Part shown: piece by piece, positions 3,301 through 35,600 of the stretch
Numbering within the stretch: position 1 is the stretch's first letter
Layout of the letters: every line of letters begins with the position of its first letter
NCBI RefSeq assembly: GCF_050320075.1
Contig: NZ_CP190018.1
DNA from: Escherichia coli
GTDB lineage: Bacteria; Pseudomonadota; Gammaproteobacteria; Enterobacterales; Enterobacteriaceae
Length of the DNA stretch: 64,000 nt
Reading direction: 5' to 3' (one strand)
Notes under the pieces: model-generated
The model's input: only the letters and a program-made list of their open reading frames with translations
Database searches by the model: none
What the model was told of the DNA's origin: nothing
Translations under genes and position numbers: made by a program

Positions 3301-3523
3301 TGGTGCCGTACTGCGTGTCCGGCCGAAAGCCATGACCGTGGCGGTGATCATTGCGGGTCTGCTGCCAATACTCTGGGGAACCGGTGCAGGTTCAGAAGTC
3401 ATGAGCCGTATCGCGGCACCCATGATTGGTGGGATGATCACGGCTCCGCTGCTGTCCCTGTTCATTATTCCTGCCGCCTACAAATTAATCTGGCTGCGCA
3501 GACATAAAAAAAGCGTGTCCTGA
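377..3523 (+). CDS. silA: Heavy-metal (Ag+/Cu+) RND efflux pump, CusA/SilA family
   Basis: 1048-aa ORF of typical RND length and 12-TM architecture, N-terminus [16 protein letters not shown]; sits between adaptor gene and silG/silP. Confidence 0.92.
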
Positions 3524-25199: not shown

Positions 25200-26323
25200 T
25201 GCGCCATTTACGCAATATTTTTAATCTGGGTATCAAAGAGTTGCGCAGTTTGCTCGGTGATAAAGCGATGCTGACGCTGATTGTCTTCTCGTTTACGGTG
25301 TCGGTGTATTCGTCAGCGACCGTTACGCCAGGATCGTTGAACCTCGCGCCGATCGCCATTGCCGATATGGATCAATCGCAGTTATCGAACAGGATCGTTA
25401 ACAGCTTCTATCGCCCGTGGTTTTTGCCACCGGAGATGATCACCGCCGATGAGATGGATGCCGGGCTGGACGCCGGACGCTATACCTTCGCGATAAATAT
25501 TCCGCCTAATTTTCAGCGTGATGTCCTCGCCGGACGCCAGCCAGATATTCAGGTGAACGTCGATGCCACGCGCATGAGCCAGGCATTTACCGGCAATGGG
25601 TATATCCAGAATATTATCAACGGTGAAGTGAACAGCTTTGTCGCGCGCTACCGTGATAATAGCGAACCGTTGGTATCGCTGGAAACCCGGATGCGCTTTA
25701 ACCCGAACCTCGATCCCGCGTGGTTTGGCGGGGTGATGGCGATCATCAACAACATTACTATGCTGGCGATTGTATTGACCGGATCGGCGCTGATCCGCGA
25801 GCGTGAACACGGCACGGTGGAACACTTACTGGTGATGCCGATAACGCCGTTTGAGATCATGATGGCGAAGATCTGGTCGATGGGGCTGGTGGTGCTGGTG
25901 GTATCGGGATTATCGCTGGTGCTGATGGTAAAAGGCGTGCTGGGCGTACCGATTGAAGGCTCGATCCCGCTGTTTATGCTGGGCGTGGCGCTCAGTCTGT
26001 TTGCCACCACGTCAATCGGCATTTTTATGGGGACGATAGCGCGTTCAATGCCGCAACTGGGGCTGCTGGTGATTCTGGTGCTGCTGCCGCTGCAAATGCT
26101 TTCCGGTGGATCCACGCCGCGCGAAAGTATGCCGCAGATGGTGCAGGACATTATGCTGACCATGCCGACGACACACTTTGTTAGCCTCGCGCAGGCCATC
26201 CTCTACCGGGGTGCCGGATTCGAAATCGTCTGGCCGCAGTTCCTGACGCTGATGGCAATTGGCGGCGCGTTTTTCACCATCGCACTGCTGCGATTTAGGA
26301 AGACGATTGGGACAATGGCGTAA
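25196..26323 (+). CDS. yhhJ: ABC-2 family transporter permease YhhJ
   Basis: Start MMRHLRNIF overlaps the rbbA stop; polytopic membrane protein. Confidence 0.88.
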
Positions 26324-26424
26324 TTACAGTTGCCCGATGCGTAAGCTTATAGGGTCTACGCATTGGTGCAATTTATTGAATTTTAGTTTTTTTTAGGCCG
26401 GATAAGGCGTTTATGAACTGACCA

Positions 26425-26911
<487 letters not shown>

Positions 26912-27240
26912 TTTGTTCTCCTTAATTATGTAAGGAGTATTTGATCATGTATAAGCAATGGAAAACAGCTTTAGGTAATAAGGAATATCTCAATTATTGA
27001 ATATTTAGTGCGAATTATTTAGTACAAAAAAGCAGCGTTGCGTGATCTTTCCCTGCCCTTTATTCATAAACACATGGATATGGTGATCAACGGTGGTCTG
27101 ATGGAGGCGCAGAGCCTGAGTAATCATGACTGAATTTCAGCCTTCAGAAGCCAGAAAAATGGCTTTAATACAATCGCAGCCCCGCTTTTCACAACATTAT
27201 GCTTATAATATGAAAAATATCTTGCCTTGCATCTTTGTGC

Positions 27241-27720
27241 CTACGGCATTGGATGATCTTTCCCTAACCTTATAGTTTCTTTTAGCCTTTCAAGCCTTAG
27301 CAATTCAACCTCGGCTTTAATATAGCCATGTGAGGCAGCCATTTTCAGCCAATTAATTGCATTATCTAAATTATAATATTTTAAATAGGAATCATCCTCC
27401 TCTGAGGATAGAATCATAGCATAATTATATTGCGCTATGATATTTCCTTGAGATGCAGACCTTGCCAGATATTTAATTTGCTTGGGTATATTAAAGCAAA
27501 CATATGTATAATATTGATGTAATCGATATGACGCATCACCATCCCCGCCCTCAGATTTAATATCAAGTTCATATCTTTGATTTTCACTTAAATTAAACGA
27601 TTCAGATGTTGAGCTTATTTCAATGTTATGGAGCTTAATAGGGGGGGGGATTTCACCTCCATATGAACAACAAGAGAAAAAGAAAACATTTGCAATCAGA
27701 ATAAATAAAAAGCACTTCAT
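27241..27720 (-). CDS. Secreted Sel1/TPR-like repeat protein; candidate immunity protein for the adjacent orphan Rhs tip
   Basis: Signal peptide (MKCFLFILIANVFFFSCC), Sel1-like repeat signatures, immediately downstream of the orphan tip; AT-rich. Confidence 0.55.
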   Translation of the reverse strand: MKCFLFILIANVFFFSCCSYGGEIPPPIKLHNIEISSTSESFNLSENQRYELDIKSEGGDGDASYRLHQYYTYVCFNIPKQIKYLARSASQGNIIAQYNYAMILSSEEDDSYLKYYNLDNAINWLKMAASHGYIKAEVELLRLERLKETIRLGKDHPMP

Positions 27721-27733
27721 GTTGCCACCTTTG

Positions 27734-28725
27734 TTATTTTATATCACTTGGTCTCATAACTTTGCCAGGAGTGGAAGAAATGGGTTGACCTGAAGGTCCA
27801 AACGTTATCCAGCGGCCCATATTATTACCAGTTATGACATTATTACTTGTGTCAATTGCCGAGATATTATCCGTAAGTCCTGTTTGGATCGTATTAAAAA
27901 GAGGAGTATTATTATCCCACGCCATCCATACTTGCCATTGTGTATCAGCTCCAGTGACATTTGCATGAAGTGCTCTGGCTAACTTGCTGGCAAAAGATTT
28001 ATCTCCCTCTCTGGCTGTACCACATGAGAATAATCAAACAGACATTCCCTTTTTATAGCGTGGATTAGCTCTGATTCTCTTGGCTAATCCCTCAGCAGTT
28101 TCATAGTTTCCATTTTCATCTGTAATAAAACCAGGATATCCATGTCCTCCAATAGTAAAAACGCCAGGAATATTTATTTTATCTGTTGCAGCATGCAGTG
28201 ATACATTTCTGCGTATCCCCTCATCATAGAAATTCATATCAGCTAATCCAAAAGGGTCTATATACTGAACCGGATTCAACGGATACTCATAAAAATTCCA
28301 TCCCCCCTTCAGCCCAATCGAATCCTGAGTGATATACCTCCCCTGCAGCGGGTCATAATAGCGGTGGCGGTTGTAATACAGGCCGGACTCCTCATCATAC
28401 TGCTGACCCGGCAGGCGGATGAGTTGCTGCAGCTGTTGCGGGTTCTCTTCATTCAGCAGGTTGCCCCATTCATCGTATTCTGCGCACCATTCTGTTGCCC
28501 CTTCCGTGCTGATAAGCACCAGCGGCAGGCCGCGATGGTCGCAGTGGTACAGGTGGATTTTTCGCGCCGGCGTGTACACCGGGTCCATCTGGTTTTGCAT
28601 CTGCTTCACCGTCAGGCCGCACGATGCCAGCCAGCGGCGGCTTTCCTCACTCACCCGGTCAGCCAGGATTTCACTTTCCAGCCGGTCGAGCATCTGCACC
28701 GTGCCGGCGGGAATCCCCCACTGTG
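27734..28725 (-). pseudogene. Orphan rhs fragment: last part of the Rhs core plus an unrecognised C-terminal toxin domain, interrupted by one in-frame TGA at 28034-28036
   Basis: 28258-28700 is near-identical to 33108-33550 of the full rhs gene; the tip diverges after the DPxGL-type motif (here YIDPFGL); track ORFs 28034-28699 and 27734-27925 are in the same frame, separated only by TGA. Confidence 0.75.
28258..28700. repeat. Copy 1 of a near-identical direct repeat (about 443 bp), the rhs core 3' segment in the orphan fragment
   Basis: Collinear with 33108-33550 at constant offset 4850 with few mismatches. Confidence 0.85.
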
Positions 28726-28740
28726 CATAGGCAACTCACG

Positions 28741-29583
28741 CTATGAACGCTTCAGCTTATCAATAGCGGAAGTTATAATTTCATTGTCATCAAACTTGTA
28801 CAACATAGTATCTAAAACAGGAAGTAGCGTTTTATCACCTAATTCACCCGCAGCTTCAATGATATCATCATAAACAGTATTTTTTTTTAACTCATCGCAT
28901 AAAACAGATAAAACCCTTTTATCTTTTCTGTAGGAAAGTCCGATTATTGCTTCAATACGGACTTCCTCATTTTTATCCTGAAGCATCTCCACAAAACAAT
29001 CCCTAATATCACTATTATCATATTTATTGATATTTATTGCAAATGCGGCCCAGTTTCTGACATCTCCATTTGGATCTTTTAACAGATTAATCAATAGTGG
29101 AATTGTTGCTTTATCATTGATAACAGAAATAGCAAATGCTGTAGCACGTCTGACATTAGTCGATTTATCAAAAGCAGTAATTTGAGATTGTTCTACTATT
29201 TTAGGTGAATAAATTGGGTTTTTCTTGCATCGCTGAGCCGTTGACTCGATTGCCGTAGCTCGAACGCAAGCGCTCTTATCATTCAATGCCATATTGTTCA
29301 AAATATTAAACACATTATCTTTGCATTTTTTGCAAATTTTTATTTGCCCGAGTATAAATGCTCCGATATCTCTACGGATATAATTTTTATCAGAGCAGAA
29401 CTCAATTGCCAATCTAACAGCGTCTTGACCACCTCTTAACTGTAATACTCTGGCAGATGAAATCCTTTTCAAGGAATTGTGATCATCAAGTAAGCGAAAT
29501 AATTCATCATCATTTAGTTTCTTACATTGATTATATAAACCATACTCTTTACTTGCCTTTCTTTTCTGGTATGTATTTGACAT
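28741..29583 (-). CDS. HEAT-repeat protein (YibA-like), immunity-type gene in the Rhs array
   Basis: Repeated D/N-x-x-VR-x-x-A motifs; GGAGG RBS 6 nt before the ATG at 29583; about 280 aa like the rhsA-linked YibA. Confidence 0.7.
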   Translation of the reverse strand: MSNTYQKRKASKEYGLYNQCKKLNDDELFRLLDDHNSLKRISSARVLQLRGGQDAVRLAIEFCSDKNYIRRDIGAFILGQIKICKKCKDNVFNILNNMALNDKSACVRATAIESTAQRCKKNPIYSPKIVEQSQITAFDKSTNVRRATAFAISVINDKATIPLLINLLKDPNGDVRNWAAFAININKYDNSDIRDCFVEMLQDKNEEVRIEAIIGLSYRKDKRVLSVLCDELKKNTVYDDIIEAAGELGDKTLLPVLDTMLYKFDDNEIITSAIDKLKRS

Positions 29584-29687
29584 TGCAGGAACCTCCATAA
29601 AGACTATCTTTTTCTATCGTTTGACTGTCTGGAGTCCTCCACCTACTCTGCCATCAGCACACACGATGTTTGTTTATCCTTACATAC

Positions 29688-29954
29688 TTATTTTCCGTGG
29701 CCAAAATTTAGAATTCTCCCGTCATTTTTGCCTATTTCTATAATAAAAACCCTACCAGCAATTTGGTCTGATTCAATGGTGCCTTCAACAATCCAACTTG
29801 TTGGTAATTCCATGATTTTGTATGGTTTTTCTTCTTCTGCGGCATCATGCCCATAACGATTTTTAACATACATCTCAGCTAATTCCAATGCTATAGCTTT
29901 ATTTTTTACCAAATTTCTAACGGTGTATTTCCCCTCACATTCATACTTGCGCAT
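29688..29954 (-). CDS. Small cytoplasmic protein paralogous to 31553-31900; immunity-like candidate
   Basis: 88 aa; shares ALEL..Y.K..YG...E.KPY.I.....W.(I/V)EG....G..F.I.I.K.DG pattern with the 115-aa protein. Confidence 0.45.
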   Translation of the reverse strand: MRKYECEGKYTVRNLVKNKAIALELAEMYVKNRYGHDAAEEEKPYKIMELPTSWIVEGTIESDQIAGRVFIIEIGKNDGRILNFGHGK

Positions 29955-30035
29955 TATAATAATATTATTACACTGCGCCCATGTGTTGTATGTAAAAACA
30001 AAGATACAATCACATAGGTTCTGAATAATATTTTC

Positions 30036-30401
30036 TTATACGTTGTCATGTATTTTGCAAACATTAGACAATCCTTTTCCATTTATTATATCTTTCCCAT
30101 GATTATCTATTGCTTTAAAATTTTCACCTATTGACCTTGAATTACTACAATCACTTCCAGTGAAATCTGAGTTATTCAGAATAGCATTCATCAGAGCCGC
30201 ATTGTGAAAGACAGCATTTCTAGTTGATGTATGTTGAATCATTACATTTCTTAAATGAGTTTTTTCAAATTTCGCCCCATCAAGACAATAACCATTGAGG
30301 GTGGCACGATGTAGATTCATCCCGCTAAAATCATATCCAGCAAGAGTGGTACTATCTATCTCAAGAAATTTATTGGTTATTAAAAATGCGATTCTTATCA
30401 T
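30036..30401 (-). CDS. Pentapeptide-repeat protein (about 121 aa)
   Basis: Tandem five-residue repeats of the A(D/N)LxX type; GGAGG RBS 5 nt before the ATG at 30401 (track uses TTG at 30413). Confidence 0.6.
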   Translation of the reverse strand: MIRIAFLITNKFLEIDSTTLAGYDFSGMNLHRATLNGYCLDGAKFEKTHLRNVMIQHTSTRNAVFHNAALMNAILNNSDFTGSDCSNSRSIGENFKAIDNHGKDIINGKGLSNVCKIHDNV

Positions 30402-30439
30402 CTGTTCCTCCAATCATCTAACTCCTGAAAAATTTGAAA

Positions 30440-30600
30440 ACCAGAACCTCGCTTAGGCCTGTGTCCATACTACGTGGGTAGGATTATTCTGCGTACTACG
30501 CTGTTGTCCCTTACGTGCTGATAAGGGCTGGCAGGTTTCCGGCTTGCTTCGTTGAGTTCACTACGCTAAAGCTCCGTGTCCACATAACCCAGCTCGGAGG
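30440..30600 (-). pseudogene. Degenerate rhs core fragment
   Basis: Translation GNLPALIST*GTTA*YAE resembles the core segment [22 protein letters not shown] but carries in-frame stops. Confidence 0.45.
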
Positions 30601-30649
30601 CATGACCTTCTCTGGTTCGTTCCATCTAAAATGTCTATAACTGACATGG

Positions 30650-30970
30650 TTATTCAATTATTTTTTCTTTGAGTTTATTCTCAATCCAGCGGTCTTTATA
30701 CCTGATGAGAATTTGACATTCACCAATATTATCAATGTCACCAACATTTGTGTTTCGAATTTGACCAACAGCAACTATAGTTGATTCAAAACATTCAACA
30801 TTGACTTTATCTGTTATTATTGAAACTATATAATCATCTGGAATGGAGCCATTAGGTATTATATTAAAGAAAGTAACATCGGTAAATACTAAATAACCAT
30901 TTTCTAAGTCTTCATTATTATAAAAATTCCATTCTGTTGTACCATAGGCTATCCTTGAGATTAAATTCAC
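30650..30970 (-). CDS. Small cytoplasmic protein, immunity-like candidate; GTG start overlaps the stop of an upstream 27-codon tip remnant (GTGA)
   Basis: 106-aa AT-rich ORF; 4-bp stop/start overlap with the preceding short ORF, as in toxin-immunity pairs. Confidence 0.4.
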   Translation of the reverse strand: MNLISRIAYGTTEWNFYNNEDLENGYLVFTDVTFFNIIPNGSIPDDYIVSIITDKVNVECFESTIVAVGQIRNTNVGDIDNIGECQILIRYKDRWIENKLKEKIIE

Positions 30971-31092
30971 CTGAATTCTAATTTGTTTGCTCCATAAATC
31001 AAATTCAATTTTTTTATTGGTCGATCACCAAGATATATTCTATCAAACATATTACCCTCTATTCTAAAAATACTCAGGCATTCCACACATTA

Positions 31093-31420
31093 TATCAGCC
31101 TCATCTTGACTGCTTCCCGTTTCCCGATACGGCGGTGCGGGGAGTCATAAAGGTAAGAAATTTCCAGCAGTACGGCGTCCTATTGTTCACGGCGGTAATG
31201 CACCAGCCAGTATTGGCTATCGTAGTGATAACCGTGTAATCTGCCGCCGCATCGCGTATCTAATGTTCATTCTTTTCCATAAACCGTCCGTACACATTGT
31301 GATAGTAAAAATACAATACATCTTCGCTGATGCGGTTATTCTGCTGCATGTGGGAAGCGCCGAATACTGCTCCCGGTATGGCCAGTAATTACTATTTAGT
31401 ACGACGTTAGGGGGAGTCAC
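31093..31420 (-). pseudogene. Degenerate rhs core fragment with stops and frameshifts
   Basis: Translation ...GRLHGYHYDSQYWLVHYRREQ*...YLYDSPHRRIGKRE resembles core [17 protein letters not shown]...[13 protein letters not shown]. Confidence 0.45.
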
Positions 31421-31552
31421 TTAATCTCACAGATACTTCAAGTAACAGATGAAAATCGCTCCTGAAATGAAAAAGAAATTTTTTTGAATGTGTTCCTGTC
31501 AAATCAAGTGGTTTTTTCGTCGATATGTAGAGTCATATTGTACACAAAATAG

Positions 31553-31900
31553 TTATGAAACACACCTTGGTAAAATATTTGAATCGTCTGAACAGTGGAT
31601 TATTTTGTGTATTACATCCAACGCTTGCCCATCTTTTTTCGCTATTAGTATTGTAAAATTTCCTCCTAACGTCTTCGGTTGTTTTCCCTCGATTTTCCAA
31701 CAATTATTGTCATCTGTAATACTATATGGTTTCTGAAATTCTGCTTTTTCTTTCCCGTATATATATTTAATATAAACATATGATAATTCCAAAGCCATTT
31801 CACGACTATTTACTAAAATTTCCACTGAATTTTCTTTTCCAAATACTGAGTGTGATATTGTAAACAATATCATAATAAGTAATATTAGTGAGTTTCTCAT
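31553..31900 (-). CDS. Secreted small protein paralogous to 29688-29954; immunity-like candidate
   Basis: Signal peptide (MRNSLILLIMILFTISHSVFG) and shared motif pattern with the 88-aa protein. Confidence 0.5.
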   Translation of the reverse strand: MRNSLILLIMILFTISHSVFGKENSVEILVNSREMALELSYVYIKYIYGKEKAEFQKPYSITDDNNCWKIEGKQPKTLGGNFTILIAKKDGQALDVIHKIIHCSDDSNILPRCVS

Positions 31901-31912
31901 GCTCTACACCTA

Positions 31913-32047
31913 TCGAATCTCAAAAGTTGTGGGTAAAACATTACATTCAGAATATATGATATTCTTACCATCGGAATCCATTTTTCCAAATCGACCTTCT
32001 GGTGTTCCTGGATACCCATTAAGAACATATTTTTTCGAATAGTTAAT
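31913..32047 (-). pseudogene. Start-less remnant of a toxin C-terminus (about 45 codons)
   Basis: Open frame ...YSKKYVLNGYPGTPEGRFGKMDSDGKNIIYSECNVLPTTFEIR ending 10 nt before the next gene; no start codon. Confidence 0.3.
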
Positions 32048-32068
32048 TTATTTTCTCAGGAAGAGATT

Positions 32069-32638
32069 TTATTTTTCTTCACTACGAAGCAGTTCATGCT
32101 GTACTTTTGTTAAACATTCGTAAGACTCATCTTTGTTCGGGAGATGTGCTGTCATTCGAGCATAAGTTGGCTTCTCATCTTTAAAATATTTAACCATGAT
32201 TGAATTATCAAGGACTGCCAACAACTGAGCTGGATCACTGCTCTTTTTTTGATAGATACCCGCTCTTATATAACTTCTAAACCGATCGCCGAGAAACGCC
32301 GTTTTTTCTGCTGTATTTAGCAACTCCTGCAACGTTCCTTTGGTTGCATGATTTTCATTAAGGCGTAGTGATCCGACGCGAATTAAGAGTCTCGCCCCGC
32401 TTGGTGTGAATTTGTTATTTTTACATATACCAAGTTCTGTTTGCCAATAATACTCACCTATGTCCTCATTCTGATACCATCTCCACATGGTTTTATTATT
32501 TAAGACAGGAAACGCGGAAAAAATAGTACCCTTAGTGAAAATGGTAAAGCAATCTTGATCTTTAGCTTGTGTTTCGCAATTAGCTATAACACCAAAACTA
32601 ACGAATATCATCAGCAAAAAGAACAAAGCTCTTTTCAT
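32069..32638 (-). CDS. Candidate cognate immunity protein (RhsI) for the main Rhs toxin; secreted or lipoprotein
   Basis: Start overlaps the rhs stop by 4 bp; N-terminal signal peptide ([21 protein letters not shown]); AT-rich. Confidence 0.6.
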
Positions 32639-35600
32639 TTTCTTATTCCTCTCGATGTTCTCTGTTTCATTTTAGCTAAAATTTCACCCAAATCATCTAT
32701 CCCTGCTGTTGCTGGCCCATCGGGTTTATTAATGTCTGGGAATAAATAGGGTTCTGCACAAGTATATCCTGGTGGTAATTGAGTTGTTGGCCAAGTTGTC
32801 TGTGGCAGGTAATCACTTGCTGTCTTTGTCTCCATCCCTGGATACTGGGGATCATCCTGCGGCGTACAAGTCAGATTGGGTTTTACCCACTTCCTGCAAT
32901 ACAGTGTGTAATCGTAAGGACTTAATGCTCTGAAGAATGTTTTGAAAACATTAGGCGCACTACTGGCCTGGTCAATAGGATATGGCAGTCTTAATTGTTT
33001 CGCTATGTCTGGCAACTTACTTGGATCGGGCGTAGGCGGTTTGTTGGGTCTCGCTCCATATCCGCCATTATTTAAGTGTCCATATTTAGATGCCAGTCCC
33101 ATTGAATCTATATACTGAACCGGATTTAACGGATACTGATAAAAATTCCATCCCCCCTTCAGTCCAATCGGATCCTGAGTGATATACCGCCCCTGCAGCG
33201 GGTCATAATAGCGGTGGCGGTTGTAATACAGGCCGGACTCCTCATCATACTGCTGACCCGGCAGGCGGATGAGCTGCTGCAGCTGGTGCGGGTTCTCTTC
33301 ATTCAGCAGGTTGCCCCATTCATCGTATTCTGCGCACCATTCTGTTGCCCCTTCCGTGCTGACAAGCGCCAGCGGCAGGCCGCGATGGTCGCAGTGGTAC
33401 AGGTGGATTTTTCGCGCCGGCGTGTACACCGGGTCCATCTGGTTTTGTATCTGCTCCACCGTCAGGCCGCACGATGCCAGCCAGCGGCGGCTTTCCTCAC
33501 TCACCCGGTCAGCCAGGATTTCACTTTCCAGCCGGTCGAGCATCTGCACCAGCACCGGCGGGAACACCACACTGCCACCGTCTTCGCCGCCGGACTGCTG
33601 AAGGGCATCCGCCAGGCTGCGGCGCTGCGTTTTCGCCAGCTCACCGGTGGCGGTTTCAACTCTGATGAGTGGCGTGAAGCTCCCCGGCTGATAAACCGTC
33701 TGGATGCGGGTTCTGTCGTTCTGTATCGTGGTCAGCCGGTCGCCGTCCCAGCCGTACCAGGTCACTTCCGGTTTCCGTGACAGCGACATCCAGCCCGTCA
33801 GGTCCCGTTCACGCCGCCATACCCGTTTTGCCACCCTGCGGCCCAGCGGGTCGTAAAGATAGCGACTTTCGACCAGCGGCTCTGCATATTGTGTCCGCGT
33901 GTAGTGCACCAGCCGGTGCCGGCTGTCGTAATGATACCGGTGAGTCCGCTCATCATCCGTGCGGATAACCCCTTCCGGGATGAGGTCGGTTTTCTCTGTC
34001 AGCCTGCCGTGACGGTCATACCGGTAAAGATAGTGCGCGTCACGGGCGATACGGTTATCCGGCCACATGCTGAGGGTGCTGTCCGGGTGCAGCTCCGGGT
34101 CGGGCAGGCGGTTGCCTGCCGGGTCCGTGGCATACGGGATGCGGATATCCAGGTTCGCTGCCGTGGTGTGGACGCCGGTCAGCCTGCCGGTGTCGCTGTA
34201 GCTGTAACTCCGGGTCTGGCGCGGGCTGCTGATGCGGATGAGTTCGCCGTTGTCGTTCCAGGTGTAATCGCGGTCATACTGCAGGCTGTTCAGGTGCTGG
34301 CTCTGTAACTGCCCGGCAGAGGTGTAAGCGGTGGTGAGTTCATAACGGCCGAAGCTGCGCAGCGTTTCCCGGTGCAGGCGGTCGCGGGTGTACTCCACCA
34401 GCGGTGTGTCGCCGAGTTTCATGCCTGACAGCCAGCCGCTGCCGTAGGTCAGCCATTCCACGGCGGGCAGGCTGTCCGGTATACAGCGGTTCGCCAGTCC
34501 CTGCGCGTTGTAAGCGTGTCTGGTTTCATGCTGCCAGAGCAGTGCTTCCGTCTGCGGGTGATGCACCGTCTGGCGCTCACCGGTCAGGCGGCCTTTCTCA
34601 TCATACCCGTAATGCACCGTCACCCGGTGGCCTTCGCTGAGATGGCTGATGCCTGTCAGCCAGCCGCGTTCGTCATACTGCCACTGCTCTGCCGGTTCAC
34701 CATTCACCGTTCGCTGTGTGATGCGGTCTGCTTCGTCATAGTGCCAGTGGGTGACCAGCCCCTCATCCTCGCTGCGGATAAGTTTGCCGGTCAGGTCGTG
34801 GTGATAACGCTGTGTGCGGCCGTCAAAGCCGGTTTCCTGTATCAGCCGGTCAAGTACATCGTAACGGAAGGTGGTGTGGCTGCCGTTTTCACTGGTCAGG
34901 CGGATGACCCGCCCGGCAGCATCGTATTCCATACTGCGCGTCAGACCGCCCTGCGTGGTACGAACGGGCTTTCCCCACGCATCGTACTGTGTCCCGTTTC
35001 TGCTGCCGTCCGGGGCAATGACGGCGGTCAGGTCACCGGCGGCGTTGTATTCATACCGCGTTTCATGGCCCTGCGTGTCTTTCACCGCAATTAACTGTCC
35101 ACGGCTGTCGTATGCGCGGTACTGACTCAGCCCTTCCTCGCGGTGCACCGCCGTCATCTGACCAAAACGGTCATGGTCATAACGGGTTACATAACCGGAA
35201 CAGTCAGTGACGGTCAGCAACTGACCGTAACGGCTCCATGTCATGGTTTTCCGGCTGCCGGTGGCATCCTCCGTTGCGCAGGGTAAGTCACTGTGTGGAT
35301 TATCATAACGGTAGCGGGTGATATCGCCGTTGTGTGCGGTTTCCTGAATCAGACGGCCGGATTCATCATATTCCCGGCGCAATTCCAGCCCGTCAGGCCC
35401 GGTGGCTGACGTTAACTGGCTGTGGTGGTTATAGTAAAATGCCGATGCCCTGCCATCCGGTGTGGTGATGCGCGTGATGAGTCCCGTCACCACATCCGGG
35501 CTGTACTCAGTCGTCCGGCCTGCGGCATCCGTCTGTGCCTTAAGCCTGCCCACCGCGTCAAACTGACTCTGCGTGACGCTGCCGTCCGCGTGTTCCTTTT

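Follow-up and report, generated by a model that had tools for sequence, protein, structure and literature searches.

Arrays of dissociated tips and degenerate fragments occur downstream of rhs genes, where they have been counted as pseudogenes or gene relics; the core fragments in them are of the clade to which the resident rhs gene belongs, and tip displacement is reported to take place within one clade (Jackson et al. 2009, PMC2935791). A second class of comparable arrays consists of orphan immunity genes (Zhang et al. 2012, PMC3482391), for which toxin-immunity pairings, including that of Tox-JAB-2 with Imm-NTF2-2, have been listed.

We analyzed a window of 64,000 nucleotides of Escherichia coli DNA (contig NZ_CP190018.1; positions below are those of this whole stretch) in which two decayed fragments of Rhs core, here called relic A and relic B, are part of a low-GC array that follows a full-length rhs gene, as orphan and dissociated rhs tips are (Jackson et al. 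2009, PMC2935791; Poole et al. 2011, PMC3150448). Like those tips, the relics are degenerate core-homologous fragments with stops and frameshifts, placed among small immunity-type genes, and the pattern is a known phenomenon, C-terminal displacement accompanied by gene relics. Unlike those tips, they have neither the core end PxxxxDPxGL nor a toxin, and unlike the relics of C-terminal displacement, they owe their truncation to a microhomology deletion (relic A) and to IS3 (relic B). There are two further modest departures from the pattern of Jackson et al.: the clade that relic A and part 1 of relic B resemble is not the resident one, and both relics were inherited within a mobile block. As in the arrays of Zhang et al., immunity genes have outlasted toxins (Imm-NTF2-2 twice, a HEAT-repeat gene, a SEL1-like gene, and DUF6258), and Tox-JAB-2/DUF4329 remnants precede the Imm-NTF2-2 genes, as the pairing predicts. 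Several immunity genes here are frameshifted, however (DUF6258 and a yhhH-like NTF2 gene), which suggests that this array, unlike those, is decaying rather than maintained. Overall, both relics are very probably non-functional debris in an array of orphan immunity genes downstream of rhs, carried in by a mobile block.

Gene order at the rhsB locus

The window contains the rhsB locus of E. coli on the minus strand, in the order nikR–rhs–…–yhhJ. The region is 100% identical in many complete genomes, and the copy in CFSAN061763 is flanked by nikR and yhhJ, which places it at rhsB. From the rhs gene onward, the main features are as follows.

36834-32635, minus strand: full-length rhs gene, 1399 aa
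Downstream of rhs, minus strand, in order: 189-aa ybfC-like gene, Imm-NTF2-2 gene, DUF6258 gene
31897-32047, minus strand: 3' remnant of a DUF4329/Tox-JAB-2 Rhs toxin, approximately 49 codons
After DUF6258, minus strand: two pentapeptide-repeat pseudogene pieces, then a frameshifted Imm-NTF2-2 gene
Further on, minus strand: HEAT-repeat gene yibA, RHS orphan with an internal stop, SEL1-like gene, remnants of IS630 and ISAs1

The PGAP annotation of this genome has no feature at 30440-30600 or 31093-31420, the two intervals to which an initial annotation of the sequence had assigned vestigial Rhs core.

The toxin remnant at 31897-32047 lies directly upstream of its Imm-NTF2-2 immunity gene (31900-31553), a toxin-immunity pairing listed in PMC3482391. 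We recognized the remnant by its Pfam family, DUF4329, and by collinearity with an E. albertii toxin ORF (L010 4824-5138). The E. albertii NTF2 gene comes after its DUF4329 toxin, which is carried on the main Rhs; the toxin ORF there is complete, but an internal stop splits the Rhs/toxin gene (L010 874-4800 and 4824-5138). Three immunity-type genes in the window each keep just the tail of a toxin gene upstream, measuring 147 nt, 58 nt, and 87 nt.

Two core relics and their junctions

Between the first Imm-NTF2-2 gene and the pentapeptide-repeat pieces, we resolved six features.

31117-31405, minus strand: relic A, decayed Rhs core, core aa ~905-1004
31064-31121, minus strand: end of an Rhs C-terminal toxin, last 18 codons and stop (GSSQDEADIMCGMPEYF*)
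30650-31050, minus strand: DUF6258 gene (Pfam PF19772), candidate immunity gene for the deleted toxin
30539-30583, minus strand: relic B part 1, 45 nt, like the foreign-clade core LEAELxRGELSxAxR
30486-30537, minus strand: relic B part 2, E. coli-type core LPALIST*GTTA*YAE (asterisks, stops), with a 3-4 nt deletion
30423-30486, minus strand: right terminal inverted-repeat end of IS3, 64 nt

Two vestigial core fragments with stops and frameshifts had been proposed from the sequence, and their existence was confirmed by tblastn, phmmer, and shuffled controls, with trimmed coordinates: core is present at 31405-31117, 30583-30539, and 30537-30486, but 30486-30423 belongs to IS3, 30600-30584 shows no detectable Rhs similarity, and 31121-31064 is a toxin end.

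The translated alignment of Rhs core that had been suggested as a check gave significant similarity. When the resident 1399-aa Rhs was used as the tblastn query, relic A matched at 31242-31117 (core aa 963-1004, 55% identity) and at 31349-31266 (core aa 923-950, 39% identity); the two matches are collinear, lie in different frames, and have a combined E of 8e-11. Queries from another clade recovered a third piece, REQYSALP, at 31375-31352 in the third frame. Relic A consists of three reading-frame segments, with frameshifts near 31350 and 31245 and in-frame TAG stops at 31262-31260 and 31182-31180. The peptide YHYDSQYWLVHY, quoted in the initial annotation, is found in this region. An exhaustive phmmer search of 1.8 billion proteins with the repaired 94-aa relic A peptide returned 59 matches (best E 1e-13), and the matches inspected were Rhs core sequences, ORF calls from relic A itself excepted. 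Such an ORF call was the sole match in a word-indexed protein search with repaired relic A, and Pfam returned nothing at E≤10 for the repaired peptides of either relic (PF03527, RHS_repeat, and TEN_YD-shell unmatched). Homology to Rhs core was found for relic A by tblastn and phmmer and for relic B by alignment compared with shuffles.

The DNA of relic A is 65% identical to the resident core over 121 nt and 59% identical to K-12 rhsD. Its closest real relative is the protein P0005 (66% aa identity over 44 aa; tblastn E 6e-16), whose gene, L011, is 75% identical to relic A over 164 nt. The GC content of relic A is 49%, compared to 62% for the resident core. Judging from these identities, relic A is closest to a non-E. 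coli Rhs clade and not to the resident core. In almost all of 5,426 complete E. coli genomes, the clade of L011 and L012 is matched at ~72% nucleotide identity at most; the exceptions, which we left uninspected, are two E. coli records at 80-90% identity and one at 90-95%. The flanks of L012, the second clade member, had no match in E. coli, and the DNA of P0004 and P0005 outside the Rhs core had none in E. coli genomes. Relic A is thus not of the clade of the resident rhs gene; part 2 of relic B does have an E. coli-type sequence. The motif PxxxxDPxGL, which marks the core/tip boundary, is absent from relic A, where core homology stops at aa ~1004.

At ~31121, core homology ends in ...AAACGG and toxin homology begins with AACGGG, which leaves a 5-nt overlap (AACGG) at which the two are joined out of frame. 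This joint is a deletion scar: the distal core and the toxin were lost and the downstream gene was kept. The toxin end was identified by alignment with an orphan toxin of ETEC1748 (L004 6156-7058). The comparison with intact orphan modules elsewhere, which had also been suggested, was informative, given that ETEC1748 has an intact copy of the toxin, on an E. coli-type core fragment and with DUF6258 directly after it. The same toxin-DUF6258 gene order is annotated in OkiPb01711, of which only the region downstream of DUF6258 was aligned. In the window, the toxin domain is absent, with 18 toxin codons left after relic A and none after relic B.

In ETEC1748 and OkiPb01711, DUF6258 comes directly after a C-terminal Rhs toxin that is intact, a gene order that makes it a good candidate immunity gene. 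Comparison of its frames with L004, L002, and L010 showed that the window has lost the 130-aa frame to a -1 frameshift: the homopolymer at 31015-31009 is A7 (A8 in the intact ETEC1748 allele), and a GTG-started ORF of 106 aa is left at 30970-30650. The frame is intact in E. albertii (run length uncounted), and ATCC 8739 shares A7. The tract may reflect simple decay or slippage-prone on/off switching, both of which are possible. DUF6258 is also the most diverged segment of the shared block, at 89.6-92.5% identity compared to 92-98% for the surrounding relics and spacers (vs L010, L002, and L013). A contig scan of genomes with DUF6258 gave one locus alone, in E. albertii, and the original host of the toxin and DUF6258 was not found in it.

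Relic B is composite and shorter than the interval 30440-30600 first claimed for it. In local alignment, part 1 matches the L011 segment coding LEAELQRGELSAANR with a score of 22 (shuffles 9.8±1.3; 0/500 reach it), and the match holds in all three alleles tested; part 1 has no match in the resident core or K-12 rhsD. Of the core sequence that would separate the two parts, approximately 107 nt have been lost in an internal deletion. Part 2 is identical to nt 3466-3509 of the resident core at 36 of 44 positions, with a local score of 28 (shuffles 10.7±1.4; 0/300 reach it). Its stops, at 30513-30511, 30498-30496, and 30486-30484, fall at E, W, and Y codons; the last was created at the IS3 junction and extends 2 nt beyond part 2. 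Core homology in relic B stops at that junction, at aa ~1170, and PxxxxDPxGL is absent here as well. We also considered the whole spacer from DUF6258 to relic B as decayed core and rejected this, as only 30583-30539 is detectable and 30649-30584 scores no better than shuffles.

Homologues of relic B at the same position are better preserved. The ATCC 8739 homologue has an open Rhs frame, is an RHS pseudogene according to PGAP, and reaches 28.0 bits against PF03527 (cut-off 27.9). Longer open-frame orphans that begin at the junction of relic B are present in ETEC1748 and OkiPb01711, and the E. albertii homologue extends further and has a 2-nt deletion near its start. The open-frame orphans begin at an LPLAL junction after DUF6258 in L004, L005, L002, and L010.

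The IS3 segment is identical to the IS3 end in L006 at 64 of 70 positions and matches from the tip inward, with the terminal TGATCC reading TAATCC; it has thousands of matches across E. coli genomes. It cuts off relic B, and the remainder of the IS has been deleted. The segment corresponds to the right terminal inverted repeat of IS3 and differs from an element in being the tip only, a deletion scar: 64 nt of right end alone, with neither the orfA/orfB transposase nor a left end. A group II intron, retron, or noncoding RNA at 30440-30640, suggested by repeated chromosome and plasmid matches, was rejected, as the repeated part is the IS3 end. At E≤1, Rfam returned nothing across 26000-33000 but a sub-threshold match to rli42, a Listeria sRNA, at 26264-26367 on the plus strand (25.7 bits vs a gathering score of 80, E 0.016), which is almost certainly due to chance. 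In approximately 20 of the closest genomes, e.g., WP2-W18-ESBL-10 (L007 1340-2680), a complete IS2, flanked by a GGAGG target duplication, separates the IS3 scrap from the pentapeptide start; the insertion site corresponds to ~30410-30414, and the window has no IS2.

Inheritance and origin of the relics

The relics are not confined to this locus. Relic A is present in 876 of 5,426 E. coli genomes and is intact in none. Its stops, frameshifts, and junction are identical, in gapless alignment, in ATCC 8739 (rhsC) and E. albertii. At the rhsA locus of SW4848, relic B has its stops and IS3 junction in common with the window, and the two relics, with their lesions unchanged, are also found at the rhsC loci of O157, BL21, and ATCC 8739. 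Positions 36836-30625 of the window are collinear at 96% identity with the rhsC locus of O157 EDL933, and the K-12 rhsB locus matches just 37198-33146 and 30122-29233. Compared to K-12, a 3-kb block replaced most of the resident RhsB toxin as a single unit. This block contains a new tip, the ybfC-like gene, the toxin remnant, the NTF2 gene, relic A, DUF6258, relic B, the IS3 scrap, and the pentapeptide gene.

These data bear on the history given in the initial annotation, in which the relics marked at least two older tip acquisitions at this very locus, each displacing the prior tip and leaving a core fragment and an immunity gene. The architecture of the array generally fits C-terminal displacement, and DUF6258 follows an Rhs toxin in other strains. 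However, identical lesions occur at rhsC, at rhsA, and in E. albertii; the 6.2-kb stretch collinear with O157 rhsC is missing from K-12 rhsB; relic A is a mid-core piece of another clade without a core end; and IS3 cuts relic B, breaking its link to the next ORF. Two successive acquisitions at this locus are therefore improbable, and the claim is not supported, the block having come in as one unit. Because the same lesions are found at rhsC, at rhsA, and in E. albertii, the relics would have arrived as passengers in one block, and given the shared lesions together with the collinearity with O157 rhsC, the events that formed them should predate the arrival of that block here. Based on these alignments, the relics were inherited in an imported mobile block and not generated at this rhsB locus.

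We propose the following sequence of events for debris carried in by a mobile block. Relic A would derive from an Rhs gene or orphan of a clade not resident in E. coli, which ended in a C-terminal toxin and had DUF6258 after it. The toxin would have been lost, and the immunity gene spared, in a deletion of ~1 kb that began at core residue ~1004, left the last 18 toxin codons, and was joined at AACGG. Relic B would be the next orphan module, beginning after DUF6258, which lost ~107 nt internally and received an IS3 insertion at its AEY|DEW codons; a later deletion from within IS3 would have taken the rest of the IS, core, and toxin. Both relics would then have drifted neutrally, being too short for homogenization against full-length cores. 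Finally, recombination in the shared core would have moved the block from one rhs locus to another in its entirety, from the tip through the ybfC-like gene, the NTF2 gene, relic A, and DUF6258 to relic B, with the relics as passengers. We infer this order of events, and the neutrality of the drift, from homologies, junctions, and lesions common to loci and species.

A more specific origin can be put forward tentatively. An Rhs toxin-immunity array of another genus or clade possibly entered Escherichia by illegitimate recombination and left relic A and relic B part 1 behind; its cargo would later have been re-attached to E. coli-type cores via the conserved PF03527 segment. In that case, the array may have borne the toxin that pairs with DUF6258. 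The only intact toxin copy inspected in E. coli, that of ETEC1748, has an E. coli-type core, which counts against a foreign-core origin, as does the low identity of relic A to its closest core (66% over 44 aa). We found no intact foreign-clade Rhs with this toxin and DUF6258, and because of this, we only infer the continuity between relic A and the toxin remnant. If the foreign origin is correct, it would be an exception to the reported one-clade rule for tip displacement and a route for importing toxins between clades.

Retention of the relics for a function, whether to provide the orphan immunity genes with promoters or leaders or to serve as homology patches for toxin-tip switching, seems very unlikely. 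Every retained immunity gene does have some toxin or core sequence upstream. Orphan tips reportedly recombine with main rhs genes. RecA recombination needs roughly 20-30 bp of homology, however, and the exact stretches that the relics share with the resident core measure at most 11 nt and 9 nt, too short for RecA exchange. A promoter and terminator scan found 15 promoter-like sites compared to 13.9 expected, which is not an enrichment, and no terminators; the relics had no match to an Rfam family. Relic A is no better conserved between strains than the DNA around it (93-98% identity vs 92-98% for the adjoining spacer), and the DUF6258 gene downstream of it is itself frameshifted. Inert debris is the best description of the relics.

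A merely accidental similarity of AT-rich intergenic DNA to Rhs core, without common ancestry, which might be argued from the lack of Pfam matches in the repaired peptides and from the length of relic B (only ~50 nt), has a negligible probability and is refuted by the alignments, given the tblastn E values of 8e-11 and 6e-16, a phmmer E of 1e-13 against 1.8 billion proteins, scores that no shuffle reached, and positional homologues with an open Rhs frame.

In annotation, these intervals should be labelled as a pseudogene or relic, with the IS3 end marked as a scar, and no gene should be called in them. Relic counts per locus overestimate the number of acquisition events there. The relics document rhs loci that lose toxins but retain immunity genes, as well as multi-gene tip blocks that move among rhsA, rhsB, and rhsC and between E. 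coli and E. albertii.

The chimeric ORF and the distal array

An immunity-like gene had been reported after each relic. This is half supported: relic A is followed by DUF6258, a candidate immunity gene that is frameshifted here, but relic B is followed by the IS3 end and then by a truncated pentapeptide chimera, which we delimited from Pfam and PGAP pseudogene calls.

30036-30401, minus strand: chimeric ORF, pentapeptide-repeat 5' part (30401 to ~30125) and RhsB toxin end (30122-30036)

The 3' part consists of the last 29 codons of the K-12-type RhsB DUF4329/Tox-JAB-2 toxin, fused at ~30123. From the toxin end onward, including the yhhH-like and yibA/yrhA-like genes, the window is 92% identical to K-12 (L008 6001-6893). 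The chimeric ORF is followed by a frameshifted yhhH-like immunity gene at 29688-30064. A search for an intact homologue or an Rhs-linked context of the pentapeptide gene returned the same chimeric 121-aa ORF alone, and the immunity families of PMC3482391 do not include pentapeptide repeats; an immunity role for the chimera is therefore unsupported.

Farther along the array, at 26525-28723 on the minus strand, there is an orphan RHS fragment with 92% aa identity to the resident core and an internal stop according to PGAP. It is accompanied by the SEL1-like gene and then by remnants of IS630 and ISAs1 (H-repeat), and it matches the tip region of the main Rhs in ETEC1748 (L004 3182-5393) at 96.7% identity.
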